From assembly GCA_016935295.1 (NCBI GenBank), contig JAFGRF010000326.1:1-35463 (forward strand): a stretch of DNA of 35,463 bases. The letters run 5' to 3'. Source of the stretch: a candidate division WOR-3 bacterium (GTDB taxonomy: Bacteria > Hydrothermota > Tepidihabitantia > Tepidihabitantales > Tepidihabitantaceae). The notes beneath the pieces were generated by a model. The model was given only the letters and a program-made list of their open reading frames with translations, was not told the origin of the DNA and did not search any database. Within the stretch, counting starts at the first letter, position 1. Every line of letters begins with the position of its first letter. Shown piece by piece: positions 2,436-24,377 of this stretch. The position numbers and the translations under genes were made by a program.

Positions 2436-2615
2436 ATGCTGAAGACGCTGTCCAAGGGACTATTGCTCGTCCTTGTTGTCTGCTGTGGCTGCGGCTGGTT
2501 GGTGAAGCCGGCCGAGTTTCTGCACACAGAATACCTCGCAGCCGGAACTGCGAGTCCAGGTTCCGTCTTGTTGGGAGGAAATCGACATGACCAAACCGAA
2601 AAGACCCCTACGTAA
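2436..2615 (+). CDS. possible 59-aa upstream ORF with a lipoprotein-like signal (below the ORF-track size cutoff)
   Basis: ATG 2436, TAA 2613-2615. Translation MLKTLSKGLLLVLVVCCGCGWLVKP... It overlaps the kaiC start in another frame. No clear SD. Confidence 0.15.
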   Translation: MLKTLSKGLLLVLVVCCGCGWLVKPAEFLHTEYLAAGTASPGSVLLGGNRHDQTEKTPT

Positions 2616-4359
2616 AGCTCCGGAGGTCCGGCCGGCCAGGGCCGCGGGGCTGAAGCCCCTTGCGAAGTGCCCGACCGGAATTCGCGGGCTGGATGACGTT
2701 ACTGAAGGCGGATTGCCGCGCGGCCGGTCGACCCTGGTCTGCGGCGCCGCCGGCTGCGGCAAGACGTTGATGGCAATGGAGTTCGTGGTCCGGGGCGCGC
2801 GGGACTTCGGCGAACCCGGCGTGTTCATGGCTTTCGAGGAAACCGTGGCCGAACTCACCAGCAATGTCGCCAGCCTCGGGTTCGACCTGCCGTCGCTCAT
2901 CCGGCGCAAGAAGCTGGCGGTGGACTATGTCCGCATCGAGCGCAGCGAAATCGAGGAAACCGGTGAGTACGACCTCGAAGGGCTGTTCGTCCGCCTGGGT
3001 ACGATGATTGACGAAGTGCACGCAAAGCGCGTCGTGCTCGATACCATCGAGTCGCTCTTTGCCAGCCTGCCCAACGAGGGCATCCTGCGCGCCGAACTGC
3101 GCCGGCTGTTCCGCTGGCTGAAAGACCGGGGCGTTACCGCGGTGATTACTGCCGAGCAGGGCAAGGAAGGCGAACTCACACGCTACGGCCTTGAGGAATA
3201 CGTCAGCGACTGCGTGATTGTCCTCGACCACCGCCTGACCAACCAGGTCGCCACGCGCCGGCTCCGGGTTGTCAAGTACCGCGGGAGCAAACACGGCACG
3301 AACGAGTACCCGACGATGATTGACGAGCACGGGCTGAACGTCCTGCCCATCACTTCGCTCGGCCTGAGCCACGATGTTTCGACCCGGCGCGTCTCCACCG
3401 GCATTGCGCGCCTGGATACGATGATGACCGGGAAAGGCTACTGGGAGGGCAGCAGCATCCTGGTCAGTGGCACCGCCGGCGCGGGTAAGACCAGCATCGC
3501 CACGGCACTTCTGGACAGCGTCTGCCGGCATGGCGGCCGGTGCCTCTTCTTCTCGTTCGAGGAGTCGCCGGACCAGATTGCGCGCAACATGGCATCCATC
3601 GGGTTCGACCTCAACCGGCACGTGCGCAGCGGGTGTCTGCAGTTTCACACGGTCCGGCCGACGCTCTACGGACTGGAGAACCACCTGGTCACTCTCCACG
3701 ACCTCGTTGACCGGTGGCATCCCCGGGCGGTGGTCATGGACCCGATAACCGGCCTGACCAGCATCGGCGAGCCGGGTGAGGTCAAGTCGATGCTGATGCG
3801 GGTAGTTGACTACCTCAAGAGCCGAAACATCACCACGCTGTTCACCAGCCTGACCGAAGGCGGCGCCGCCCTCGAGAAGACCGACATCAGCATCTCCTCG
3901 CTGATGGACACCTGGCTCCTGCTGCGCATGGTCGAATCCGCCGGCGAGCGCAACCGGATACTGTATGTCCTCAAGAGCCGGGGCATGGCGCACTCCAACC
4001 AGATACGTGAGTTCGTGCTCACCGACCACGGCATCAAACTCACGGACGTGTATGTCGGCCGAGGTGAGGTCTACACCGGTTCGGCCCGCGTCGTCCAGGA
4101 GTCGCGGGACAGGGCCGACGCGATCGCCGCCGGACAGGCCTCCCACCGCCGGCAGCGGGAAATCACCCACGAACGGCTTGCACTGGAAGCCCAGATGCAG
4201 AAACTGCAGTCCCGGCTCGCCGAACTGAAACAGGAAACGACCATGGCCGCCAAACAGGAGCGGGAACGCGATGCCACCTCGCGCCATGACACCAAAGGCC
4301 TGGCCCGTATCCGGAAGGCCGACAGCGACGGAGCACAAGAAGAAGGGAACAACACATGA
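2587..4359 (+). CDS. kaiC: KaiC-family double-RecA ATPase/autokinase with extended C-terminal coiled-coil tail (KaiC2-like)
   Basis: 590 aa. Walker A GAAGCGKT and GTAGAGKT; catalytic FEE pairs (MAFEET, FSFEES). The CII segment [15 protein letters not shown] matches the region of the cyanobacterial S/T phospho-sites. About 70 extra C-terminal residues are rich in heptad-like [31 protein letters not shown] upstream. Confidence 0.9.
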
Positions 4360-4658
4360 CCAAAGCGGCATCGAGCCCCAAATCAGGGACCTGGGACCTG
4401 AAGCTCTACATCGCAGGCTATACGCCCCGGGCGGTGAAGGCCCTTGAAAACCTGAAGCAACTTTGCGAGGAACACCTGCACGGCGTGTACACTATCGAAG
4501 TAGTTGACCTGTTACGCAACCCGCGCCTGGCGCGGGGCGACCAGATCGTGGCGGTGCCCACCCTGGTCCGCAAGCTGCCGGAACCGGTCCGCAAAATCAT
4601 CGGCGACCTCTCGAACCGGGAACGGGTCCTGGTCGGTCTCGACCTGCGGCCGAGATGA
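4356..4658 (+). CDS. kaiB: KaiB
   Basis: 100 aa. ATGA start/stop overlap with kai[20 protein letters not shown]...[34 protein letters not shown] matches the KaiB family end to end. Confidence 0.92.
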
Positions 4659-4675
4659 AGACGCGCAGGCCGGGT

Positions 4676-4730
4676 GACGGAAGACGGAGGACGGAAGACG
4701 GAGGACGGAGTGCGGAGGCAGGGAGAGGAG
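4676..4730 (+). repeat. purine-rich heptamer/14-mer tandem repeat directly upstream of the activator start codon
   Basis: GACGGAAGACGGAG (4676-4689), GACGGAAGACGGAG (4690-4703), GACGGAGTGCGGAG (4704-4717), GCAGGGAGAGGAG (4718-4730), then AATG. It contains many GGA/GGAGG motifs. Confidence 0.85.
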
Positions 4731-4731
4731 A

Positions 4732-6366
4732 ATGAACGAACGCCGGACCGAGTCTCCGAGGGAGCTGCGTGCGCAGCTCGAGGACGTCCGGCACCGGCTG
4801 GCCGAGGCGGAAGAAACGCTCCGCGCTATTCGCGAAGGCGACGTGGACGCCGTGGTCGTCTCCGGAACCCGGGGCGACCAGATACTCACGCTCGACCAGG
4901 GCGAGGACGCTTACCGCCTGACGGTCGAGACGATGAATGAAGCCGGGATTGTTGTAGCCCCGGACGGGACGATACTCTTCGCCAACAAGGCCCTGGCCGG
5001 CATGCTCGGTGTCCCGCTCGAGCAGGTCGTCGGCAAGCCGTTCGCCCTGCACGTCCACGATCGGCAGGGCCTGGATAGCCTGCTCCGCGCGGCACGACAG
5101 TGTCCGACCGACGCGCGGTTGGTCCTGAACGGTACGGATGGCGAGTCGATACCGGTCTACGCCTGGGCCAGCCTGCTGGACCAACCCGACGGCGCGGCCG
5201 TCCTTCTCTTGGGCGCCGGACCTGCGCGACTCGAAGCCCCCCGCGAGATGATCAAGCACCTTCAGGCGCAGCGCCAGGCGTTGGCGGCCAGCGTGGCGGC
5301 GCTCAGGGAAGCTGAGACCAAAACCCACAGTCTCATCCAGTTCACCGCCAGTAAAGCACTGACCTCTGATCGGCTGCATCAACAGGTGGGACGGCTTCGC
5401 CAGGAGCTGGAAGGGCAATTCCGAATGGTCGGCGACTCGCCGGAACTGCAGCGCGTGCAGAGCCTGATAGCCCGCGTCGCGCCGACTGCCGCCAGTGTCC
5501 TCGTCACCGGCGAGAGCGGAGTGGGCAAGGAACTCGTGGCCCGGGCCGTTCACTTGCGGAGCCCGCGCGCCGGCGAACCATTCGTCGCACTCAACTGCGC
5601 CGCGATTCCCCAGGAACTAATAGAAAGCGAGCTATTCGGCCACGAGAAAGGCGCGTTCACCAACGCGGGGGCGGCCCGTGCCGGCAAGATACAGGAAGCT
5701 GACGGCGGCACGCTCTTCCTCGACGAAATCGGCGACTTGAGCCTGCCGGCGCAGGCGAAGCTGCTGCGGTTCCTGAACGACTCGGAGGTGCAGCGTGTCG
5801 GCGGCAGCGGCGTCATCCATCTCGACGTGAGAATAGTCGCCGCGACCAACAAAGACCTGCCGGAAATCATCAAGCACGGCGTTTTCCGTGACGACTTCTA
5901 CCACCGTTTGAACGTAGTGACTATCGAGGTCCCGCCGTTGCGAGAACGGATGTCGGACATCGAACTGCTCGCCACCTTCTTCCTTGACCGTTACTGCGCG
6001 GACTATGGCCGGATTGTTCGATTCGCGCCCGAGAGCTGGCACGCGTTGAAGGAGTACGCCTGGCCCGGCAATGTCCGCGAGCTGCGGAACCTCGTCGAGC
6101 GCGTTGTCATCCTGGCCGAAACGAACCCGGTCGAGGCCGAGGAGTTGCGTTCGTTTCTCGGCGCCGAGGCCAAGGTCCCGACGGACGGAACTCTTAAGGA
6201 GGCCCTTGAACGCGCCGAGCGCGAGGCCGTCGAGAGAGTCCTGGTGCAGACCAACCACAACGTTGCCGAGGCGGCCGCCATACTGGGCATTGTCCGTCCC
6301 AGCCTTTACCGGATCATTAAGCGGTACGGAATCGCTTCTCCAAGCCGGGCCCAGACCAAAGACTAG
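4732..6366 (+). CDS. PAS-domain sigma54-dependent transcriptional activator (bEBP) without a receiver domain
   Basis: N-terminal coiled coil plus PAS (GDVDAVVVSG...YRLTVETMNEAGIVVAPDGTILFANKA). AAA+ domain with Walker A GESGVGKE, Walker B LFLDEIG and ESELFGHEKGAFTNA. C-terminal Fis-type HTH NVAEAAAILGIVRPSLYRIIKRYGI. Confidence 0.92.
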   Translation: MNERRTESPRELRAQLEDVRHRLAEAEETLRAIREGDVDAVVVSGTRGDQILTLDQGEDAYRLTVETMNEAGIVVAPDGTILFANKALAGMLGVPLEQVVGKPFALHVHDRQGLDSLLRAARQCPTDARLVLNGTDGESIPVYAWASLLDQPDGAAVLLLGAGPARLEAPREMIKHLQAQRQALAASVAALREAETKTHSLIQFTASKALTSDRLHQQVGRLRQELEGQFRMVGDSPELQRVQSLIARVAPTAASVLVTGESGVGKELVARAVHLRSPRAGEPFVALNCAAIPQELIESELFGHEKGAFTNAGAARAGKIQEADGGTLFLDEIGDLSLPAQAKLLRFLNDSEVQRVGGSGVIHLDVRIVAATNKDLPEIIKHGVFRDDFYHRLNVVTIEVPPLRERMSDIELLATFFLDRYCADYGRIVRFAPESWHALKEYAWPGNVRELRNLVERVVILAETNPVEAEELRSFLGAEAKVPTDGTLKEALERAEREAVERVLVQTNHNVAEAAAILGIVRPSLYRIIKRYGIASPSRAQTKD

Positions 6367-6389
6367 TCCTCCTCACACCTGCACCGCCC

Positions 6390-6428
6390 TGTCTCCCGCG
6401 AGAGACGCCGAGTCTCCCAAAGGAGACA
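6390..6428 (+). promoter_or_regulatory. paired 18-bp palindromes, putative enhancer (UAS) for the bEBP
   Basis: TGTCTCCCGCGAGAGACG (6390-6407) and AGTCTCCCAAAGGAGACA (6411-6428), 21 bp centre to centre. The pair starts 24 bp after the activator stop codon. Confidence 0.6.
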
Positions 6429-6557
6429 ATACGATCCAGTGTGACATTCCCCTCAAGCAGAAACGCAGCACGGCATCCAACCGGCTGCAGGCATACCTGA
6501 CCGAGCAGCGCTCCCGGCACAGCGTGAAAACGCGGACGGCCGCTCCAACTACCCTTA

Positions 6558-6573
6558 TGGCATGATTGGTGCA
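6558..6573 (+). promoter_or_regulatory. sigma54 (-24/-12) promoter
   Basis: TGGCAT-GATTG-GTGCA with correct GG-N10-GC spacing. It lies ~90 nt upstream of the radical SAM start. Confidence 0.65.
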
Positions 6574-6665
6574 GGGTCACATGAGGAATCCGAGATGGCC
6601 GGGCATTCCAATGGCCATGCTGTTGCTGGCCGGAAGCGCGGCGTCTCTAAGGGAGTACGACTGAA

Positions 6666-8525
6666 GTGAAAGACCTGTTGTCCGGGGTCACCCGTGCCTT
6701 GCTTGTCCAGCCGCGGTTCTCCATACGGAGCTTCTGGAACTACGCCGAAACGTGCCGGCTGACCGGCGCCAGGTACTCATCCCCACCGCTGGGGCTGATG
6801 ACCGTCGCCTCGCTGCTTCCTCAGCGCTGGCAGTTGAGGCTCGTCGACGAGAACGTCAGACCCCTTGCCCGCACCGACCTGGATTGGGCGGACATCGTGC
6901 TCACCGGGGGCATGCTGCCCCAGCAGGCGGCCACGCTCGCGGTCATGGAGAGGGCGCACGCAGCAGGCAAGCCGGTCGTGCTGGGCGGGCCCGACCCTTC
7001 CCAGCAGCCGGGCATCTACCGGGACGCCGACTTCCTGGTTGCCGGTGAGGGGGAAATCACCATACCATCGTTCCTCGCCGACCTTGACCGGCACGCCAAG
7101 TCGGGCAGCTACCGCTCTTCCGAACGGGCGGACATGAGCCGGGCCGTGGTGCCACGGTTCGACCTCGTGAACTTCCGGGACTATCTGGAGGTGAACGTCC
7201 AGTTCTCGCGCGGGTGTCCTTTCAACTGCGAGTTCTGCGACGTCATCGAGCTGTTCGGCCGCCGCCCCCGAACCAAGGAAACCGGGCAGGTTCTCACCGA
7301 ACTCCAGCGACTGTACGACCTTGGGTACCGCGGTCACGTGAACTTCGTCGACGACAATCTCATCGGCAACAAGTCGAGAACACGGGACCTGCTCGCCGCG
7401 GTTGCCGAGTGGAACCGTTGGCACAAGTACCCTTTCTTCTTCAGCACCGAGGCGTCAATCAACCTCGCTCGGGACCCGGAGTTGCTGAACCTGATGCGGG
7501 ATTGCGACTTCCGATACGTGTTCGTAGGCATCGAAAGCCCGGACCAACGGGCACTGGACCGGGCCGGGAAAGTCCAGAATCTGAACGTCTCGGCCCCGGA
7601 CGCCGTCAGGACCATTGCTTCCTACGGCATCATGGTCCACGGCGGTTTCATCCTGGGGATGGACGGCGAGCCGCCCGACGTCGCGCGCAATCTCATTGAG
7701 TTGATCGACGATGCCGGCATCTGCATGGCCATGGTCGGCACGCTCTACGCTCTTCCGAACACTCAACTCGAGCGACGACTGCAGCGGGAAGGCCGGCTCT
7801 TCCGCCGAACGGCAGTCGACCAGGCTGGAGCCATAGATCAGATTACCAGCGGCCTGAACTTCGTCACCGAGAGGCCGCGCGCCGACGTGCTCGGCGACCA
7901 GGCAGACGTGCTGCGCCACATCTACGACCCGGCCCGGTTCTACAAGACGCTCACTAAGGTAGCAACCCGCCTGAAGCCGGCGTACAAGCACCGTGTCGGG
8001 CTCCGCGAGGCGCTGCGGCTGGCCCTGGGATTTGCCAGGCTCTCGGCCAAGGCCGGGTTCAGCCGGCAGACCGGCCTGCTCTACTGGAGGGCATTGCTGC
8101 GGGTGCTCGCAAAGAACCCGGCCGCGATTGATGTCGTCGCCAACATGGCGGCGATTTACCTCCACTTCGCCAGACAATCACGGCACGTAGTCGGTGCGCT
8201 CGACGCAGCGGCGGAGCACGTTCGAGCGTTCGGGGAGAAACGCCACAACGCGCTGATGACCGCAGGCATGCCCCCGGTCGAAGCCGGTACGAGCGCCACC
8301 GACGAGCCCGATTTCCGCCGCGCTCGACCGCCGGGACGAGTTCGTCATCCTCGGCCAGTTGTTGCAGCAACCTCGCCATTCGACCCGATGTCGTCAACTG
8401 CCGGACGTACACTGGCCTCCACGTCCGGCAGTAGTGCGACCCCGCCAGTCTATGCCGGCGGTATCCTCGTACGCAGTATTGAGCCAGAAGGAGACATGTA
8501 TGTTGAATCCTTCAGGTCGTTATGA
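6666..8525 (+). CDS. B12-binding radical SAM protein (DUF4070-type); the C-terminal ~100 codons read into an ompA-like remnant
   Basis: GTG start after AAGGGAG. N-terminal cobalamin-binding-like region (PPLGLMTVASLLP...IVLTGGM). CPFNCEFCDV CxxxCxxC cluster (7215-7238). The tail from ~8200 is homologous to the ompA 3-prime end. Confidence 0.8.
   Translation: MKDLLSGVTRALLVQPRFSIRSFWNYAETCRLTGARYSSPPLGLMTVASLLPQRWQLRLVDENVRPLARTDLDWADIVLTGGMLPQQAATLAVMERAHAAGKPVVLGGPDPSQQPGIYRDADFLVAGEGEITIPSFLADLDRHAKSGSYRSSERADMSRAVVPRFDLVNFRDYLEVNVQFSRGCPFNCEFCDVIELFGRRPRTKETGQVLTELQRLYDLGYRGHVNFVDDNLIGNKSRTRDLLAAVAEWNRWHKYPFFFSTEASINLARDPELLNLMRDCDFRYVFVGIESPDQRALDRAGKVQNLNVSAPDAVRTIASYGIMVHGGFILGMDGEPPDVARNLIELIDDAGICMAMVGTLYALPNTQLERRLQREGRLFRRTAVDQAGAIDQITSGLNFVTERPRADVLGDQADVLRHIYDPARFYKTLTKVATRLKPAYKHRVGLREALRLALGFARLSAKAGFSRQTGLLYWRALLRVLAKNPAAIDVVANMAAIYLHFARQSRHVVGALDAAAEHVRAFGEKRHNALMTAGMPPVEAGTSATDEPDFRRARPPGRVRHPRPVVAATSPFDPMSSTAGRTLASTSGSSATPPVYAGGILVRSIEPEGDMYVESFRSL
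8200..8358 (+). pseudogene. remnant of the 3-prime end of an ompA-family gene, embedded in the radical SAM ORF tail
   Basis: The DNA ...gccaccgacgagcccgatttccgccgcgctcgaccgccgggacgagttcgtcatcctcggccag aligns to ...gccaccaacgagaccgattccggccgcgcgctcaaccgccgggttgagttcgtcatcctcggacag (22715-22780) with an indel. It encodes LDRRDEFVILGQ in a shifted frame. Confidence 0.6.
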
Positions 8526-8778
8526 CAGCAACGGCCGCGCCGGAGGTGGCAGATACGGTCGCTCCTCAGAGGAGGCCCGCACGCCGGTCCAGACGGATAG
8601 GGCCAGCGAATCAGGCCCGCCGGCGAACGGCGCTACTGGCTGGTCCCAATCGGCCCTGACGCACTGGAATGCGATGCAGAGAGGACGGGATCGCGAAGCC
8701 CGCACTTGGGGTGACGGAGCGGACAGCATACGAGATGGCCAGAAGAGCAGAGAAGCGAACGCTGAAGGGGACCCTTGA
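8500..8778 (+). CDS. hypothetical R/G-rich small protein (uncertain)
   Basis: ATG 8500 lies 5 nt after AAGGAG. Translation MLNPSGRYDSNGRAGGGRYGRSSEE... is low complexity. It could instead be a non-coding scar between remnants. Confidence 0.2.
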   Translation: MLNPSGRYDSNGRAGGGRYGRSSEEARTPVQTDRASESGPPANGATGWSQSALTHWNAMQRGRDREARTWGDGADSIRDGQKSREANAEGDP

Positions 8779-8950
8779 ACGCGCTGAGCGCGAGGCGGTA
8801 GAACGAGCAATGACGCAGGCGCAGAACAACGTTGCCGAGGCGGCCGCTATGCTGGGTATCGCGTGTCCCAGCCTCTACCGGATCACAGAGCGCCACGGGA
8901 TCGGCTCTCCGTCTCACACTCAGAACAAGGGCAACTCTCCACCGCAGTGA
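8762..8950 (+). pseudogene. orphan copy of the bEBP C-terminal Fis-type HTH (3-prime gene fragment)
   Basis: GTLERAEREAVERAMTQAQNNVAEAAAMLGIACPSLYRITERHGIGSP compares with GTLKEALERAEREAVERVLVQTNHNVAEAAAILGIVRPSLYRIIKRYGIASP at the end of 4732-6366. DNA similarity is obvious. No AAA+ domain lies upstream. Confidence 0.7.
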
Positions 8951-8958
8951 TCGCGACT

Positions 8959-8997
8959 TGTCTCCCTTGGGAGAATGGCTGTCTCCTCGGGGAGACA
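8959..8997 (+). promoter_or_regulatory. paired 18-bp palindromes (UAS)
   Basis: TGTCTCCCTTGGGAGAAT (8959-8976) and TGTCTCCTCGGGGAGACA (8980-8997), 21-bp phasing. The pair starts 9 bp after the HTH-fragment stop. Confidence 0.6.
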
Positions 8998-9050
8998 ACG
9001 CCGGCCATAGCGCCCTGCCAACTGGCTCGGAACGTTGCCCGACACTACCC

Positions 9051-9066
9051 TGGCACGTATCCTGCT
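9051..9066 (+). promoter_or_regulatory. sigma54 promoter
   Basis: TGGCAC-GTATC-CTGCT, 55 bp downstream of the UAS pair. Confidence 0.6.
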
Positions 9067-9310
9067 TTGGGAATGGTGGGTTACATAGAACCCAAGGGAA
9101 CGGCAACCTATGTTGCCATTGCCTCCGGCAACCAAACGGGCCCACAGCCGGTTGTCGTGACGGTTGCGGAAAGCCGGTGCGCCCGGACCCGTAGCCGACA
9201 TTGGTCGGAAGCTGCCGGGATAGCGCACCAGTCCCCTTTCCCGGCAGCTACCGTCCGCAGAGCAGAACGGGTCCAGCGCGCGCAGAAACACGAACAACAA
9301 TGGGAGAGAA

Positions 9311-9532
9311 ATGAAGATAGTCAGAACCATTCAGAAACCGGCCGGCATCCTCTACAGCCCCGCTACCGGCCTGATGGTGATGGAGTTCGCCGACCGGGGC
9401 CGTTACATCTACCACGATGTACCCAAGAGCATCTATGACGTCCTCAAGTGTGCGCCCGCTCACGTGCATGCCCAGTTCGTCAATAACGCCGGGCACCACT
9501 TTTCAGTCATCGATGGCATAGAAACGTACTGA
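9311..9532 (+). CDS. KTSC-domain protein
   Basis: 73 aa. ILYSPATGLMVMEFADRGRYIYHDVPKSIYDVL carries the central YxY..VP signature of the KTSC domain. Confidence 0.65.
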   Translation: MKIVRTIQKPAGILYSPATGLMVMEFADRGRYIYHDVPKSIYDVLKCAPAHVHAQFVNNAGHHFSVIDGIETY

Positions 9533-9607
9533 GGGCCGCTCCGCCGCGTCCGGCTGAGGCGCCATGCTGCGCCGCCGAAGTACGCGGGAGACGGCGGCCT
9601 TGGTTGG

Positions 9608-9622
9608 TGGCACGCTTCGTGC
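9608..9622 (+). promoter_or_regulatory. sigma54 promoter
   Basis: TGGCAC-GCTTC-GTGC, ~115 nt upstream of the lipoprotein start. Confidence 0.55.
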
Positions 9623-9738
9623 CCATAACAGACCATGGCGATGTGCAACGCCACGACTCTAGAAGACTGTGCCGGCTGCAACTCAAGCCCAGCGAGGCTT
9701 CCCCTGTCAGCCGGTCAACGCAAGAAAGGAAGATCCGT

Positions 9739-14768: not shown

Positions 14769-15011
14769 ATCAGTACAACAAAGGTCGCAATCACGATTGA
14801 GCGTGACCTGCTCGTCCGTCTGGACCGGCTGGTCAGAAGCCGGAGATTCCCGAATCGGAGCCGGGCCGTGCAGGAGGCGATAAAGGAGAAGGTCGCGCGG
14901 CTTGAGCGCAGCCGGCTGACTGAGGAGTGTGATAAACTCTACCGGGTGTCGGAACGGAAGATGGCCGATGAGGGTCTATCGGAGGAGGCGGCGCTGTGGC
15001 CCGAGTATTGA
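14769..15011 (+). CDS. ribbon-helix-helix antitoxin (MazE/CopG-like); start codon unresolved
   Basis: The open frame after TAG 14751 encodes (I)STTKVAITIERDLLVRLDRLVRSRRFPNRSRAVQEAIKEKV... There is no ATG/GTG/TTG before the RHH strand. GAGGAG (14757-14762) lies 6 nt before ATC 14769. The stop overlaps the mazF start region. Confidence 0.55.
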   Translation: MSTTKVAITIERDLLVRLDRLVRSRRFPNRSRAVQEAIKEKVARLERSRLTEECDKLYRVSERKMADEGLSEEAALWPEY

Positions 15012-15334
15012 GGGGTGACGTTGTCCGGGCCGAGTTGAGCCCGACCCGAGGTCGCGGACAGGAAGGCCGGCGTCCGGTCCTGGTGCTGAGCCAGGAAGTC
15101 TTCAACGAACGTTCCGGCACCGTGATCGCAGCGGCCTTGACCACTCAACCTCGGGCGGCCGGCTTTCCGCTCACGCTAGAGCTATCCGTGCCCGAGCTAC
15201 CAAGGAAGTCATATGTGAAGATCGGTCAGGTGCGTACGCTCTCGACCAAGTGGCTGGGCCGGCGGATTGGCAGGGTCTCGCCGGAGGAACTTCGCCTCGT
15301 CATCGAGGGCCTGAACGAGATAATCGGCGAGTAA
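14996..15334 (+). CDS. mazF: MazF/PemK-family endoribonuclease toxin
   Basis: LRGDVVRAELSPTRGRGQEGRRPVLVLSQEVFNERSGTVIAAALTT... is typical PemK. The start is GTG 14996 or TTG 15008. Confidence 0.8.
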   Translation: MARVLRGDVVRAELSPTRGRGQEGRRPVLVLSQEVFNERSGTVIAAALTTQPRAAGFPLTLELSVPELPRKSYVKIGQVRTLSTKWLGRRIGRVSPEELRLVIEGLNEIIGE

Positions 15335-16498: not shown

Positions 16499-16536
16499 TG
16501 GGCCGCGGTCAACACCCCGGGTGAAACGCCGGGACT

Positions 16537-16554
16537 AGTCTCCCGTCGGAGACA
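16537..16554 (+). promoter_or_regulatory. single 18-bp palindrome (UAS-like)
   Basis: AGTCTCCCGTCGGAGACA, preceded by gggacTAG as at the ends of the HTH copies. Confidence 0.45.
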
Positions 16555-16617
16555 ACTCCGGCCGTGGTGCCGCTTGACATCACGTAGCCGAGAACGTTGA
16601 GGTCTGCTGCCCAGCTC

Positions 16618-16632
16618 TGGCCGCGAATGCGC
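16618..16632 (+). promoter_or_regulatory. weaker sigma54 promoter candidate
   Basis: TGGCCG-CGAAT-GCGC(AGT). GG-N10-GC spacing is kept, and it shares the GCGCAGT tail with the other copies. Confidence 0.4.
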
Positions 16633-16735
16633 AGTGTCTGCGACGGCAGCAGTTGGAGCCGTCTCGGTCAAGACAACAAGTACTCGAGCTGTCACGTCGT
16701 TAGCTACATCGGGGTGAGTGTCACGGAAAAGGAAG

Positions 16736-16773
16736 GCTGTCGGCGGCTTGGAGGCTCTCTAGCCGCCGACAGC
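16736..16773 (+). other. perfect 13-bp-stem hairpin ~90 nt downstream of the predicted sigma54 start
   Basis: GCTGTCGGCGGCT-tggaggctctct-AGCCGCCGACAGC. Confidence 0.5.
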
Positions 16774-17025
16774 TCTCGTCAGACCGAGCAGAGCCGCGAC
16801 CCGCAAACCTCCGCAGCCCCTCAGCACGGTCGCCAGAGCAACAAGCCCGGATCCGGCAACCTGCCTTCAGTGTCCTCAGTGCAGCAATCGTGCCAGTCCG
16901 CCCTCCGGACGAGTCTCGAGCACCGCTGCTGGGCAAACCGTACTGCATTCCATCGGTACAAGCACTGGCTGGTTGCCAATGGTCAGCAATCGACGCGCCA
17001 AGACCAGTTGCCCGTCAGGGACAAC

Positions 17026-17043
17026 GTGTCTCTCTGAAGATAC
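17026..17043 (+). promoter_or_regulatory. single degenerate palindrome (UAS-like)
   Basis: TGTCTCTCTGAAGATACA, the same variant as at 17777 and 18579. Confidence 0.4.
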
Positions 17044-17127
17044 AACCATCGCGCCGCTATGACAGGTCAGTCGTCGCCGGACTGCAGGCACAGAGGCGCA
17101 ACCCAGCAACCGCGACCCGGTCTGCAC

Positions 17128-17755: not shown

Positions 17756-17794
17756 TGTCTCCCAACGGAGACCGCGTGTCTCTCTGTAGATACA
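17756..17794 (+). promoter_or_regulatory. paired palindromes (UAS)
   Basis: TGTCTCCCAACGGAGACC (17756-17773) and TGTCTCTCTGTAGATACA (17777-17794), 21-bp phasing. Confidence 0.6.
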
Positions 17795-18004: not shown

Positions 18005-18184
18005 ATGAAATCGAGTACGCAGGACGAAGCGGAAGGCAAGCTCCACAAGGTGAAGGGTAGTATCACGGAGATTGCGGGGAAAGTCACCAAGAATCGCAAA
18101 CTGGTACGGAAAGGCAAGGCCGAGAAGAGAGCCGGCAAAGCACAGGAGAAGGTCGGCCAGGTGAAGAAGGCCCTTGGGAAATAG
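18005..18184 (+). CDS. csbD: CsbD-family stress protein (59 aa, below the ORF-track cutoff)
   Basis: GGAGG SD. MKSSTQDEAEGKLHKVKGSITEIAGKVTKNRKLVRKGKAEKRAGKAQEKVGQVKKALGK has the typical CsbD repeat pattern. Confidence 0.8.
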   Translation: MKSSTQDEAEGKLHKVKGSITEIAGKVTKNRKLVRKGKAEKRAGKAQEKVGQVKKALGK

Positions 18185-18323
18185 AACGAAGCCGCTCTGC
18201 ATTGCGCCCCGCAACTCCGAGCGAAACGCTGCGGCGCCAGCCAAGGTCCGGCCGATACAGCCGACGAAACAGGGACCGAGATGCGAAGTGAGACGAACCG
18301 GCACCGTGCCCAACGCTAGAACG

Positions 18324-18500
18324 GACGGCGCACTCCATGTTGCCTTGGAGCGCACGGAGCGCCGGGCGGTTGAGAAGGTACTTGCGCAGACAAATGGCAA
18401 CGTCGCCCAGGCGGCTGCCAGGTTGGGCATATTGCGTACGAGCCTCTACCGTATCATGAAGCGCTGCGGAATCGCTACTCCGTCAAGTGCCAGGGACTAG
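18324..18500 (+). pseudogene. second orphan copy of the bEBP C-terminal HTH
   Basis: DGALHVALERTERRAVEKVLAQTNGNVAQAAARLGILRTSLYRIMKRCGIATPSSARD-stop. There is no upstream AAA+ domain, and the frame overlaps the csbD end. Confidence 0.65.
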
Positions 18501-18578
18501 CCCTGTGTATCCTCGAATGTTACATGTCCCTGCGCCGCAATTGAATACGCGAGGCACTCTCGCCTTCCCAGTTCCATG

Positions 18579-18596
18579 TGTCTCTCTAGGGATACA
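18579..18596 (+). promoter_or_regulatory. single degenerate palindrome (UAS-like)
   Basis: TGTCTCTCTAGGGATACA. A weaker TGTATCC-N5-TGTTACA lies at 18506-18524. Confidence 0.4.
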
Positions 18597-18690: not shown

Positions 18691-18706
18691 AGGCACACAA
18701 GGTGCA
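18691..18706 (+). promoter_or_regulatory. sigma54 promoter
   Basis: AGGCAC-ACAAG-GTGCA(GT), ~240 nt upstream of the OMP start. Confidence 0.5.
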
Positions 18707-18953: not shown

Positions 18954-19454
18954 ATGAACCGAAAAGTAGTGACCGCGCTTGCCATCGCAAGCATCTGCAT
19001 CGGTGTTGCCGTCGCCCGGCCTCAAGGCCTCGGCCTGGGTCTCATGGGTGGCAACCCTTCCGGGCTCAGCCTCAAGGTGTGGACCGGCCCCCACATGGCG
19101 ATCGACGGCGGGCTGGGCTACACCCTGTGGTACGGGCAGGCACTCAGCTTCCACGGGGACGTGCTGTGGCACACCAACAGCCTGCTGCAGTCGTCGGAGG
19201 ATGGCTATCTGCCGCTCTACATTGGCGTCGGCGCCCGCGTCGTGATGGGGGACAACCACGACTACCCGGACATGAGAATCGGGGTCCGGGTGCCGTTCGG
19301 GCTCGAGTACGTGTTTGCCAGCGTGCCAATCGGCCTGTTCCTGGAAGTGGTCCCCACATTTGACCTGGCTGGGGTACCGACGGACAGAAACTTGTTCGGT
19401 CCGCAGGGGTCAATCGGCTTCCGCTACTACTTCAGCGGGTCATCACAGGACTAG
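18954..19454 (+). CDS. small outer-membrane beta-barrel protein
   Basis: AAAGGAG SD. Signal peptide MNRKVVTALAIASICIGVAVA. Alternating beta-strand pattern, aromatic-rich C-terminal strand GSIGFRYYF. Confidence 0.7.
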   Translation: MNRKVVTALAIASICIGVAVARPQGLGLGLMGGNPSGLSLKVWTGPHMAIDGGLGYTLWYGQALSFHGDVLWHTNSLLQSSEDGYLPLYIGVGARVVMGDNHDYPDMRIGVRVPFGLEYVFASVPIGLFLEVVPTFDLAGVPTDRNLFGPQGSIGFRYYFSGSSQD

Positions 19455-20749: not shown

Positions 20750-20818
20750 ACGTGGGCAAAGCAGACCGTGAATCCGTTAGTTACGCAGAAAGGCTTCAAA
20801 GAAGCCACAGGAGGTAGA

Positions 20819-22786
20819 GTGAAAGTAAGAGTGTCAGTATTGGCACTGCTGATGTCAGTGCTGCCCGCGCTCGTGTTCGCGTATCCGGGCATCGGCGGCG
20901 GGAAAGGGCTATTGCGCGTCCAGAACGCGCTCGTGGAGGATGAGGCCGGCCTGACGATCTCGCTCCACGCGCTGGCTCGAAACCCGTTGTTCGAGACGCC
21001 GGTGGCTGCTCCCAATTCAAGCGGCTGGGTGGCCGACCTCATCGCGCCCGAGTTGAGCTACGCTCCGGTCGTGACGAAGTATGCCGGCTTCGAGCTCTTC
21101 GGCTCGTGGGGCGGTGTTTTCCAAACACCCAAGTCCTCCACCGAGGACGGCTTCATCTGGGGCTTCCACGACCTGAAAGCGGGCGGCAAACTGTCGATTC
21201 CGATCATCCCGGTCCTCAAGCTCGGTGGCACTGCATCGTACACGTTCCTTGACCGCGAAGTCAAAGATGGCTGGACGGTGCTTGACCCGACGGCGGTGGT
21301 GCAAGCCGACAAGCTCGCGTGGGCCGGCCTCGTTACGCTGCAGTTCCAGGATGTGATGAAGGCGGCCCCGAATATCATGTTTAACTACGGCAAGGTCGCC
21401 GACGAAACCCGCTATGGCGCCGGAGTCGAACTTCAGGGCACGGGCTTCGGCCTGTTTCTCGAAGCGCTGTCCCAGCAACCCAATGTGGGATCGAGCGGCA
21501 TCTTCGACACGGACAACGGCCACATCCATCTCACACCCGGCGTCGCCCTCGGCTCAGTGAGCTCGTCGGTGTTCAAGCTCGCCTACACGTTCAGCTTCGG
21601 CAACGATGCAAGCGGCATCAAGCAGCCCAACGAACTAATACTCGGCGTCTCCTTCGCCACGCCGTTCGGCAAGCGCGCGCCGGCTGAGTACGGCACGATT
21701 ACCGGCACGGTTGCCGATGAGAAGACCGGAGCTGCGCTCACCGCGAACGTCGATTTCCCGGAGAACGAGAATATGGCGTCGTTCACCACCGATGCTACCG
21801 GCGTGTTCGAAGTCAAGAAAGTCAGAACCGGCGTGACGGTTGTCGAGGTAAGCGCCGACGGCTACAATAAGCAGACGGTACCGCTGGCGGTCGAGAAGGA
21901 CCAGGTCGTCAACTACCAGTTCAAGCTGCGGCCGCTCAAGACCTACGGCACGATTGCCGGCACGGTCATTGACGCAGTCTCCAGCGCACCGCTGGCCGCC
22001 CGCATCGAGTTCCCCGGCACCGCGCTTGCTCCGGTGAACGCCGGTGCAACCAGCGGCGCGTTCAAGGTCGACAAGGTGGAAACCGGCGTCTACACCCTGA
22101 CCGCGAGCGCCGACAAGCACATTCCCGCGACCATCACCGTGGCGGTCGAAGACAACAAGCTGGCCACCGCGACGTTCAAGCTCTCGCCGGTTGAGGCCGC
22201 CGTCGCCGTTACCGGCAGAGTCTACGACAAGAAGACCGATGCGTCGCTGTCGGCCACGGTCACGTTCAACAACGTTGTGTACAATACCGACCCGGCGACC
22301 GGCGTCTACAAGGCGCAATTGATGGCCGGCTCCTACACGGTTGTCATCGAGTCGAAGGACTACGTGAAGCAGACTGTAGCGATGGTAGTCGAGAAAGGCA
22401 AGCCGACGGTGAGGAACTTCGAGCTGGTGAAGGAAGGCATGTCCATCACCCTGAAGGGCATCTACTTCGACTTCAACCAGGCGACCATCAAGCCCGAGTC
22501 GCGCCCGGCCCTCGAGGATGCGGCCAAGATCCTCAAGGACAATCCGACCATCAACGTCGAGATCCAGGGCCACACCGACAGCAAGGGCTCGGATGAGTAC
22601 AACCTCTCGCTTTCCGACAAGCGCGCCTGGGCGGTCGTGAACTACCTGGTCCAGAACTTCGGCATCGCGATGAATCGCCTGACCGCCAAGGGCTACGGCG
22701 AGGCGAGGCCGATAGCCACCAACGAGACCGATTCCGGCCGCGCGCTCAACCGCCGGGTTGAGTTCGTCATCCTCGGACAGCAGTAG
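20819..22786 (+). CDS. OmpA-family outer-membrane protein, paralog of 265-2238
   Basis: GTG 20819 lies just after AGGAGG; the track start at 20768 is upstream of the SD. Same architecture as the first copy. The C-terminal half is near-identical at DNA level in stretches (e.g. aagaagaccgatgcgtcgctgtcggccacggtcacgttc in both). Confidence 0.9.
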   Translation: MKVRVSVLALLMSVLPALVFAYPGIGGGKGLLRVQNALVEDEAGLTISLHALARNPLFETPVAAPNSSGWVADLIAPELSYAPVVTKYAGFELFGSWGGVFQTPKSSTEDGFIWGFHDLKAGGKLSIPIIPVLKLGGTASYTFLDREVKDGWTVLDPTAVVQADKLAWAGLVTLQFQDVMKAAPNIMFNYGKVADETRYGAGVELQGTGFGLFLEALSQQPNVGSSGIFDTDNGHIHLTPGVALGSVSSSVFKLAYTFSFGNDASGIKQPNELILGVSFATPFGKRAPAEYGTITGTVADEKTGAALTANVDFPENENMASFTTDATGVFEVKKVRTGVTVVEVSADGYNKQTVPLAVEKDQVVNYQFKLRPLKTYGTIAGTVIDAVSSAPLAARIEFPGTALAPVNAGATSGAFKVDKVETGVYTLTASADKHIPATITVAVEDNKLATATFKLSPVEAAVAVTGRVYDKKTDASLSATVTFNNVVYNTDPATGVYKAQLMAGSYTVVIESKDYVKQTVAMVVEKGKPTVRNFELVKEGMSITLKGIYFDFNQATIKPESRPALEDAAKILKDNPTINVEIQGHTDSKGSDEYNLSLSDKRAWAVVNYLVQNFGIAMNRLTAKGYGEARPIATNETDSGRALNRRVEFVILGQQ

Positions 22787-22807
22787 CGGCCAACCGGTAG
22801 CAATGGA

Positions 22808-22831
22808 AAGGGGAGGCTCCGGCCTCCCCTT
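22808..22831 (+). terminator. intrinsic terminator
   Basis: AAGGGGAGG-ctccgg-CCTCCCCTT followed by CCCTTTCG. Confidence 0.7.
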
Positions 22832-22893: not shown

Positions 22894-23061
22894 ATGGGCA
22901 CGCCCCCAGCCGCGTCCAACCCGGCCCGCGACCTCCTGACTCGCAATTGGGCCAAGAATGACGCCCAGAAGCTCCAGTCCATCCTGCCAAGCAAGCCGGT
23001 CGAGGCCGACTTCCGTCTACTCGACCCGGCCCATCGCTTGGGCTATACTGAAGCCGCATGA
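22894..23061 (+). CDS. 55-aa ORF translationally coupled (ATGA) to the methyltransferase; possibly a remnant of a methylase N-terminus
   Basis: LQSILPSKPVEADFRLLDPAHRLGY loosely resembles the L..LP..SVDLiiTDPPY segment of beta-class methyltransferases, with DPPY degraded to DPAH. Confidence 0.25.
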   Translation: MGTPPAASNPARDLLTRNWAKNDAQKLQSILPSKPVEADFRLLDPAHRLGYTEAA

Positions 23062-24377
23062 AGACCGCGACCTGTAGGACGAACGGCGACAACAACAAGA
23101 TGCTCCCGCTCGACCGGGCAGCCCACGATTGGTACCGATTCGTTCTGTCGTTTCCACCTCACTTGGTGCGTGACTATCTGGAACGCTTTGAGGTAGGGAC
23201 GCAGGACTGTGTCCTCGACCCGTTCTGTGGTACCGGCACGACGCTGGTCGAGTGCAAGAAGCAGGGCATAGCTAGTATCGGGGTCGAATCCAACCCGATG
23301 GCCTGGTTTGCGAGCAAGGTCAAGACAGACTGGGACATAGAACCCGATGGCCTCCGCGATCATGCGTCCAGAGTGGCTGATCTCACGCTTGACCGTCTGG
23401 AGGCTGAGGGCATTAGGGACGATGACGGTCTTCCGTTCAGATTCCGAGATGCCGCCGCAGCCTCCCGCCTGAGGGCTCTGCCCGAGGAAGTCACGAAGCT
23501 GATACTGAAGGATTCCATCAGTCCTCTGCCCCTGCACAAGACCCTCGAGCTAATCGATTGTCTGAACGACCACAAGGACGGACGCCTCCACGACCACGAG
23601 CAGTTGGCGCTTGCGTCGGCGATTGTGGGTCGCATCAGCAACCTTCACTTCGGCCCGGAGGTGGGCGTTGCCACACCCAAATCGGACGCCGCAGTCGTAG
23701 GCGCATGGCTCGACAATGTGCGTACGATGGTCCGTGACCTGAGAGAACTGCGGGAGCTATCGAGTGCGGACTCGACTGTCCTTCAGGCCGACGCGCGTGA
23801 CTTGACCGGGCTACTGAAGCCGGAGTCCATCGAGGCGGTGATTACATCTCCGCCCTATCCCAATGAGAAGGACTACACGCGTACTACAAGACTGGAATCA
23901 GTGTTGTTGGGCTTCATTCGGAGCAAGCAGGACCTGCGCTCGCTCAAACAGAACATGGTCCGGTCCAACACGCGCGGTGTCTATCGTGACGACAACGACG
24001 ACCAGATGGTGTCAGCACATGAGGAGATAAGACGTATAGCCGACGCAATCGAGAAACGGAGAGTAGAACTCGGCAAGACATCTGGTTTTGAACGACTCTA
24101 CGCAAGAGTGACGAAGCTCTACTTCGGCGGTATGGCCCGGCACCTCAAGACTCTATGCCGAATCCTGCGACCGGGGGCGCGGCTTGCATATGTGGTTGGC
24201 GACCAGGCATCCTACCTCCGCGTCATGATCAGAACCGGCACGCTGCTGGCAGACATCGCCCAGTCACTCGGCTACGAGGTTATGGGAGTCGACCTGTTTA
24301 GGACCCGGCTCGCGACGGCAACGCGGGAGCAGTTGCGGGAGGAAGTTGTCTTGCTCCGCTGGCCCGGGAGCAACTAG
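23058..24377 (+). CDS. DNA methyltransferase (N6-adenine or N4-cytosine), motif I before motif IV
   Basis: VLDPFCGTGTTLVECKKQG (AdoMet motif I) and ITSPPYPNEKDY (catalytic SPPY), ~200 residues apart. Confidence 0.8.
   Translation: MKTATCRTNGDNNKMLPLDRAAHDWYRFVLSFPPHLVRDYLERFEVGTQDCVLDPFCGTGTTLVECKKQGIASIGVESNPMAWFASKVKTDWDIEPDGLRDHASRVADLTLDRLEAEGIRDDDGLPFRFRDAAAASRLRALPEEVTKLILKDSISPLPLHKTLELIDCLNDHKDGRLHDHEQLALASAIVGRISNLHFGPEVGVATPKSDAAVVGAWLDNVRTMVRDLRELRELSSADSTVLQADARDLTGLLKPESIEAVITSPPYPNEKDYTRTTRLESVLLGFIRSKQDLRSLKQNMVRSNTRGVYRDDNDDQMVSAHEEIRRIADAIEKRRVELGKTSGFERLYARVTKLYFGGMARHLKTLCRILRPGARLAYVVGDQASYLRVMIRTGTLLADIAQSLGYEVMGVDLFRTRLATATREQLREEVVLLRWPGSN

Follow-up and report, generated by a model that had tools for sequence, protein, structure and literature searches.

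We investigated a 35.5-kb contig from a candidate division WOR-3 bacterium (JAFGRF010000326.1, assembly GCA_016935295.1), referred to here as the window, which has 62% GC. The element of interest is stub B, a small open reading frame (ORF) with a helix-turn-helix (HTH) domain that lies between a B12-binding radical S-adenosylmethionine (radical-SAM) gene and a KTSC-domain gene. Upstream of the radical-SAM gene, the window encodes a full-length bacterial enhancer-binding protein (bEBP), the parent activator, with Pfam matches to Sigma54_activat (227.6 bits), AAA_lid_14, PAS, and HTH_8. The first of these is the AAA+ sigma-54 interaction domain that defines a bEBP; the GAFTGA-type loop reads GAFTNA. 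A second small HTH gene, stub C, lies further downstream, 5′ of a gene encoding a 166-aa protein. Features are listed in Table 1, where the rows give the gene order on the forward strand. Loci from relatives carry L numbers and proteins carry P numbers; bEBP orthologs were found in L016, L004, and L022.

Table 1. Genes and regulatory features of the window discussed in the text
Feature	Position	Strand	Remarks
OmpA-like gene		+	First gene listed on this strand; 5′ of KaiC
KaiC	2587–4359	+	
KaiB	4356–4658	+	
Parent activator (bEBP), PAS + sigma-54 AAA+ + HTH_8	4732–6366	+	544 aa; HTH core 6193–6336
Enhancer (upstream activating sequence) palindrome pair A	6390–6428		24 nt 3′ of bEBP stop; motif scan
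Sigma-54 −24/−12 promoter of radical-SAM operon	6559–6573	+	Pattern scan
B12-binding radical-SAM/DUF4070 gene	6666–8525	+	Pfam; first gene of the operon ending in stub B
Small ORF X	8500–8778	+	Strong Shine-Dalgarno; frameshifted versus intact orthologs with C-terminal YWLVP motif
Stub B, B-type standalone HTH_8 gene	8669–8950 (93 aa) or from ATG 8735 (71 aa)	+	HTH core 8762–8902
Enhancer pair B	8959–8976 (TGTCTCCCTTGGGAGAAT) and 8980–8997 (TGTCTCCTCGGGGAGACA)		Centers 21 nt apart
Sigma-54 −24/−12 promoter of KTSC	9051–9066 (TGGCACGTATCCTGCT); 9052–9066 is GGCACGTATCCTGCT	+	Pattern scan
KTSC-domain gene	9311–9532	+	Pfam KTSC; first gene of the operon 3′ of stub B
Enhancer pair 5′ of CsbD-like gene and stub C	17756–17794		Motif scan; L006 has the same pair, then a promoter
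CsbD-like gene	18005–18184	+	Immediately 5′ of stub C; Pfam CsbD 48.6 bits
Stub C, C-type standalone HTH_8 gene	18288–18500	+	Called 70 aa (P0011); core 18333–18476
Enhancer palindrome 3′ of stub C	18579–18596 (TGTCTCTCTAGGGATACA)		Motif scan; type conserved in L006, L027, L030
Sigma-54 promoter of 166-aa gene	18692–18706	+	Pattern scan
166-aa gene	18954–19454		With the sigma-54 promoter at 18692–18706

A repeat search of the window returned a three-copy HTH family, with the reference copy at 6188–6368 and further copies at 8757–8937 (73%) and 18328–18508 (66%). The copy in stub B matches the last ~60 codons of the bEBP gene at 73% nucleotide identity over 181 nt. A tblastn search of the window with the 544-aa bEBP aligned residues 487–543 to 8759–8929 (68% amino acid identity, E = 6e-18) and residues 484–541 to 18321–18494 (E = 6e-18). 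No AAA+ similarity adjoining either stub was found in this search, with nothing near 8400–8760. The initial annotation, which was made from the letters of the window, had noticed the 3′ end of the bEBP gene reappearing at about 8762–8950 without an AAA+ domain, and both searches bear this out. Judged by these alignments, derivation of the stub from the DNA-binding end of a bEBP is shown at the DNA level. The Pfam HTH_8 family matches the ORF at 8669–8950 with 31.9 bits and the ORF at 18174–18500, which contains stub C, with 41.2 bits (cut-off 22). The same scan gave no AAA+ family match for the stub B ORF, which thus lacks the domain that defines a bEBP, and only the C-terminal ends of bEBP models in NCBIfam match the stub.

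The reading frame of stub B is open from 8660 to 8950, with none of the frameshifts or stops of a pseudogene and no sign of a dN/dS near 1. The gene caller starts the product at ATG 8735 (P0001, 71 aa), and a methionine at the equivalent position is also present in three relatives. However, relatives keep an N-terminal extension that fits the ORF from ATG 8669, and therefore the 93-aa product is the likely one. ORF X carries a 1-nt frameshift in the window relative to the intact versions in L027 and L030. ORF X is found elsewhere directly 3′ of the B12 radical-SAM gene and just 5′ of B-type and several C-type stubs (L030 about 7770–8070, L027/L028 7810–8025, L001 6033–6256), with a conserved C-terminal motif, YWLVP(I/V)D. 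A candidate role for its product is that of precursor peptide to the radical-SAM enzyme.

Stub B is the last ORF in an operon that carries a sigma-54 promoter and an enhancer; 9 nt separate its end from the enhancer belonging to the KTSC operon. The enhancer motif TGTCTC-N6-GAGACA, allowing two mismatches or fewer, has 12 occurrences in the window where 1.8 are expected, and the promoter pattern GGCAY-N6-TGCW occurs 8 times against 1.2 expected, a count of 8 not being reached in any shuffle. Both enrichments agree with the palindrome pair at 8959–8997 followed by a −24/−12 promoter that had been noticed at the outset. The site at 9051–9066 shows the fixed spacing of GG at −24 and GC at −12, and it lies 3′ of activator-type palindromes. 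A near-identical copy of pair B is present in L030 at 8289–8327, and the KTSC promoter is conserved in L016, L022, and at L030 8383. Scanning 6300–9700, we found no terminator-like site or sigma-70 promoter.

The initial annotation also described this unit as a copy of the layout at 6200–6573. The order of elements is the same in kind, but the palindromes and promoter are 55 nt apart in the unit at 8959–9066 and 131 nt apart in the unit at 6390–6573; L030 keeps 55–56 nt. Alignment of 6193–6573 with the stub B unit showed that the HTH and the palindromes are alike, with no DNA similarity beyond them, so that shared DNA is confined to these two elements. The combination of stub, palindrome pair, and promoter is kept in the orthologous loci L030 and L027, and the tail, palindromes, promoter, and leader are kept in L016.

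A profile search with the stubs returned at least 120 clusters (90% identity) of 51–161 aa, nearly all with HTH_8 as the sole Pfam domain. Among the matches listed, the clusters are 63–96% identical to the first sequence of the query, and several are on contigs of 35–145 kb. An exhaustive search of representatives clustered at 50% gave about 30 short representatives with E below 1e-17. The family is found in candidate division WOR-3 and related metagenomes, and all of its sequences are metagenomic. We assigned subtypes mainly by signature residues before the recognition helix and by synteny. The C-type signature GILRTSLYRIMKR is present in 74 of the 120 clusters listed, the activator-like subtype reads GIVRPSLYRI, and the B-type signature GIARPSLYRI is present in seven proteins, joined by P0087 with SVYRI. 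Most B-type proteins have the N-terminal extension M.HREG..GKPAL.VTERAAY..AR.AEKRTLK, which matches the window ORF from 8669. A neighbor-joining tree of HTH cores (141 nt) places the B-type sequences in one cluster and the C-type sequences in another, with weak bootstrap values of 62% and 30%. A third stub subtype (P0106, P0112, P0074, P0107) was also seen; in L007 it occupies 7626–7913, 5′ of the activator gene and 3′ of a palindrome pair and sigma-54 promoter, and the translated frame of its C-terminal extension runs across the next palindrome. The representative library also holds proteins of 758–1423 aa with 7–10 tandem HTH_8-like stretches (P0133, P0141, P0174, P0139).

Orthologs of stub B occupy the same position in other lineages. 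L027–L029 and L030–L031 share the order of the window, namely bEBP, palindromes, sigma-54 promoter, B12 radical-SAM gene, ORF X, B-type HTH_8 gene, palindrome pair, and sigma-54 promoter, and this gene order is thus common to three lineages. The B12 radical-SAM proteins of L027 and L030 are 89–90% identical in amino acid sequence to that of the window, the position of pair A is occupied in both, and the equivalents of the radical-SAM promoter lie at L027 5513 and L030 5950. Homologs of the KTSC gene and of the 298-aa gene come directly next in L030–L031 and ~3 kb further downstream in L027–L029; synteny of the KTSC gene was found in L016, L022, and L030. Of the 15 loci carrying a C-type stub, 14 have a homolog of the 166-aa gene 3′ of it (among them the window, L001, L003, L005, L006, L016–L018, L020–L023, and L030, several being WOR-3 metagenome-assembled genomes). 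The exception is L019, with a C-type copy 5′ of a CsbD homolog. Each locus has two or three stub copies. A chimeric assembly was considered as the cause of this arrangement and rejected, as the order is identical in independent assemblies.

The initial annotation had called stub B an orphan fragment, and named intact small Fis-like genes in relatives as the finding that would overturn this. Such genes are what the relatives carry, at equivalent positions in L027–L031 for the B-type and in the 14 loci above for the C-type. As far as this conservation allows us to judge, stub B is a conserved small gene, neither orphan nor debris. The proposal of a duplicated, portable cassette fares better in part. 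The unit is present three times in the window and is repeated in relatives, where some copies are decaying, but the stub within it is a conserved gene.

Selection on the stubs was estimated by the Nei-Gojobori method on the 47-codon core, and for B-type orthologs on 72 codons from three DNA sequences. The C-type stubs have a median dN/dS of 0.24 over 66 pairs (median dS 0.57), compared with 0.14 for the core of the bEBP HTH, and their variable sites are distributed 26/17/36 over the three codon positions. The B-type orthologs have dN/dS of 0.32–0.52, with a shortage of nonsynonymous changes in the three pairs (binomial P of 0.0025, 0.023, and 0.053), and stub B compared with the activator consensus gave 0.31 (P = 0.005). 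The stubs are thus under constraint at the protein level, and it is weaker than that on the HTH of the activator itself. Since the frames are intact and dN/dS is 0.24–0.5, B-type and C-type stubs are probably translated. A relative-rate count showed that stub B of the window has not evolved faster than that of L030 (7 versus 6 private changes), and four of its seven private changes are within the recognition helix.

The A, B, and C types have nearly identical recognition helices, SLYRI(M/T)(K/E)R. A single-sequence search with stub B against PDB sequences gave no match at E 0.01, and the stub profile gave weak matches to Fis and NtrC, including 4l5e. The isolated DNA-binding domains of Aquifex NtrC1 and NtrC4 have been solved (PDB 4L5E, 4FTH). 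The 46-residue domain in 4l5e is of the NtrC family, and therefore a piece as small as a stub is able to fold.

Two half-site types, GAGACA and GATACA, are present among the palindromes, as seen at window 18579–18596, 17777–17794, and 17027–17044, L006 797, L027 15979, and L030 12372 and 12444. Those 3′ of C-type stubs have the form TGTCTCT-N5-GATACA. Such a split hints that the A, B, and C proteins may differ in specificity. In L030, four identical palindromes (TGTCACCCAAGGGAGACA) stand in tandem at 5738–5818 with a 21-nt period, directly 3′ of the bEBP stop. The window enhancer at 16524–16556 is 94% identical to the enhancer directly 3′ of the L016 bEBP. The KTSC gene has a long 5′ leader (9067–9310, from the sigma-54 promoter to the start codon) that is conserved in L016 and L022, and this leader contains an inverted repeat (9203–9228/9231–9256) with no Rfam match.

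Several copies of the unit are in decay. In L001, a copy at 5366–5591 covers activator residues 473–544, is nearest to the bEBP of L001 itself, and is followed by a palindrome pair and promoter; it is frameshifted before the recognition helix, as expected of a pseudogene. L022 has a short stub remnant at 6992–7057. By their sequences, these fresh or decaying copies in L001 and L022 show that the stub-palindrome-promoter unit is apparently still being duplicated. The three closest KaiBC-linked relatives of the window, L016, L004, and L022, retain just the last ~20 codons of stub B. In the interval from the bEBP gene to the KTSC gene, L004 and L022 have a methyltransferase gene, L016 has nothing, and the window has the radical-SAM gene. 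The methyltransferase gene encodes a class I SAM enzyme and lies at about 4900–5830 in L004 and about 2400–3450 in L022, where it looks frameshifted; the L004 ORF continues into the stub B remnant (..SSFIMKRPENASPTHPQTKNQLSP).

The junctions of these modules lie inside the HTH-coding repeats. The bEBP genes of the window and L016 are 95.8% identical up to base 6338 and divergent beyond it, and the bEBP tail and downstream DNA travel with the downstream module. The window, L027, and L030 share the tail ..SPSR(A/P)Q(T/P)K(D/S), with the radical-SAM operon next. The tail of L016, L004, and L022, ..(S/T)KVE(P/S)PA, and its flanking DNA resemble the tail of the L027 B stub. On the sequence pattern, this is the trace expected of recombination between the activator HTH and stub B that would have deleted the radical-SAM module. 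Given where the junctions fall, the repeats would also serve as recombination arms, that is, as sites of homologous recombination for the deletion, insertion, and exchange of operon modules.

Taken as a whole, we lean cautiously towards stub B being a real small gene whose product would act as a competitor or modulator consisting of a DNA-binding domain alone, with the repeats also being recombination junctions. The stub family would have arisen by duplication of the bEBP 3′ end along with the adjoining enhancer and promoter, which begin right after its stop codon. The activator would switch the stub on as the last gene of the radical-SAM operon, from the promoter at 6559. The stub could then dimerize like the activator's DNA-binding domain and occupy the TGTCTC-N6-GAGACA palindromes, or alternatively form a heterodimer with that domain. 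Being unable to contact sigma-54, it would damp or time activation. The initial annotation had already raised such an anti-activator role for a product with the DNA-binding domain alone, and we regard it as plausible. As the activator itself would switch it on, such damping would amount to negative feedback; a temporal ordering of successive operons is the other possible outcome.

A number of observations weigh against a functional competitor. No Shine-Dalgarno sequence is present at 8669 or 8735, unlike the first genes after the sigma-54 promoters, which carry strong ones, and start codon positions are not conserved among C-type stubs. The dN/dS of B-type stubs (0.3–0.5), based on three DNA sequences and 72 codons, indicates weaker constraint than on the activator HTH. 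Stub B has been lost in L016, L004, and L022, and is therefore dispensable there. The window copy has its HTH and adjoining, enriched palindromes, yet it has Cys and Glu (GIACPSLYRITERHGI) where the eight other aligned B-type proteins invariably have Arg and Lys. These two positions align with Arg85 and Lys93, DNA-contact residues of Fis, and stub B of the window may be a weakened, drifting, or poor DNA binder. In an alanine scan of LuxO the third helix was critical (PMC11407668), and the stub Arg position could not be confidently mapped from it. An AlphaFold2 monomer model from a nine-sequence B-type alignment (mean pLDDT 73) has a long helix over residues 10–62 and a short helix, and gave no compact HTH fold; we judged it uninformative.

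Stub B could instead be a neutral scar, an untranslated fragment that hitch-hiked with the enhancer and for which the gene calls are spurious. The enhancer begins 9–25 nt past the activator stop, and therefore any duplication with a complete enhancer must carry the 3′ end of the gene. The frameshifted L001 copy, the truncated remnants in L016, L004, and L022 with the further piece at L022 6992–7057, the poor translation starts, and the private recognition-helix changes of the window copy would all fit. However, a scar would hardly keep B-type and C-type frames open across lineages at dS 0.3–1.0, deplete nonsynonymous changes, let third codon positions vary most, conserve subtype signatures and synteny, and preserve the N-terminal extension as protein, and we regard this explanation as unlikely, at a level that still deserves some weight. 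The main functional rival to competition is a helper role, in which the stub would bend or pre-mark enhancers in the manner of Fis or IHF, or pair with the activator and aid assembly of its ring, and so raise or order the activation of successive operons. The stubs belong to the same fold family as Fis, they always adjoin enhancers, and the GATACA half-sites, as opposed to GAGACA, follow C-type stubs. The near-identity of the A, B, and C recognition helices favors direct competition for sites instead, and the stub lacks an N-terminal Fis-like arm; we consider a helper quite improbable.

The repeats might also matter only as DNA, either as homology arms for module exchange or as an upstream regulatory region. 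This would account for module junctions inside the HTH-coding repeats, but selection for DNA identity would neither spare third positions nor give dN/dS below 1, and there is very little to recommend it as the whole explanation. The initial annotation had offered, as one alternative, a second full-length activator whose sensor and ATPase were deleted down to the stub. The homology of several stubs does reach the linker after the ATPase lid, from about residue 471–477. However, no AAA+ similarity lies beside any stub in the window or the loci screened, with no remnant in more than 20 stubs examined there and no trace of a degraded full-length bEBP. Independent copies all begin in the one linker, at about residues 471–488 depending on the copy, and just 144 nt separate the end of the radical-SAM gene from ATG 8669. 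We find this origin scarcely credible.

The closest known counterpart of the stubs is Fis of gamma-proteobacteria, a small, standalone, dimeric HTH_8 protein homologous to the C-terminal DNA-binding domain of NtrC-type activators. Fis is said to have arisen from the NtrC DNA-binding domain, a proposal of Morett and Bork from 1998. The stub profile aligns to about residues 56–97 of Fis, the C-terminal HTH alone. Unlike Fis proper, which has about 98 aa with an N-terminal β-hairpin arm and dimerization helices A and B, the stub has no match to the arm and helix A, its own extension being a different sequence. It differs further in its independent origin in candidate division WOR-3, in gene calls of 51–161 aa, and in its context, which is not that of a global nucleoid protein, as it is embedded in the parent regulon directly 5′ of enhancers. 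Compared with NtrC-family bEBPs, the HTH and recognition helix are the same as those of the adjacent bEBP, but with neither a sensor nor the AAA+ sigma-54 interaction domain, the stub cannot activate transcription.

Anti-activators of bEBPs are well known, including PspA acting on PspF, NifL on NifA, HrpV on HrpS, and FleN on FleQ. Their binding target is the activator's ATPase or sensor part, and PspA and some others are encoded in the regulon they control. The net effect proposed for the stub, damping of a sigma-54 activator, is similar; in contrast, the stub would compete at DNA sites or pair through the DNA-binding domain, and it has no homology to these proteins. GerE (LuxR/FixJ family) and BldC (MerR family) are likewise small proteins that consist of the DNA-binding domain alone of a larger regulator family, but of another fold family, and we know of no case in which either was repeatedly duplicated together with its parent's binding sites. 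Our literature search found no paper on bEBP paralogs consisting of a DNA-binding domain alone beside enhancers.

Seven window promoters lie 3′ of TGTCTC-N6-GAGACA-type palindromes, and therefore the 6.4–19 kb region is one sigma-54 regulon island; the part from 6.5 to 19 kb holds 7 of the 8 promoter matches and all 12 palindrome matches. The island carries genes for small stress-type proteins, including CsbD, two KTSC genes, a DUF883-like gene, MazF, and OmpA-like genes. No rpoN gene lies within the window, an Rfam scan of the whole window gave no match, and NCBIfam gave none for ORF X, the 298-aa gene, or the 166-aa gene. The 146-aa ORF at 16597–17037 is unlikely to be a gene; L016 has pieces of it in three places (1180–1466, 3489–3575, and 6495–6683), within intergenic regulatory modules.

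OmpA/CarboxypepD_reg paralog genes at 265–2238 and 20768–22786, with 75–79% DNA identity, flank the island on both sides, and the hairpins 3′ of them (2252–2298 and 22784–22830) are 87% alike. The island includes a MazF/PemK toxin gene (14996–15334), and just past the island comes a DNA methylase-like gene (23058–24377). KaiC and KaiB stand directly 5′ of the PAS-type sigma-54 activator in the window (2587–6366) and likewise in L004 and L022; L001, L027, and L030 instead have a response-regulator-type activator after an LEA_2 gene. The KaiBC-activator arrangement suggests that, in WOR-3, a Kai clock or hourglass feeds into a sigma-54 stress regulon, and we found no relevant paper on WOR-3 with KaiC and sigma-54.

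Sigma-54 activators are usually restrained through their ATPase or sensor domains. If our reading of stub B is true, paralogs consisting of a DNA-binding domain alone beside enhancers would be a distinct layer of control. The regulon would grow by copying a promoter, an enhancer, and a piece of the regulator gene as one unit, and cargo would be swapped at the repeats, as in the one slot that holds a radical-SAM gene, a methyltransferase gene, or nothing among relatives. The setting is an uncultured phylum, WOR-3, in which regulation is essentially unknown, and the locus adjoins KaiC and KaiB. More tentatively, and on balance doubtfully, WOR-3 may have re-run, independently and repeatedly, the event from which Fis is proposed to have come, with stubs that the activator switches on and that then compete or pair with it at enhancers as a feedback or timer of a KaiBC-linked stress regulon, and with the units acting as recombination arms by which operons enter or leave the regulon. 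The stubs would then be a living example of a Fis-like protein born from an activator gene.

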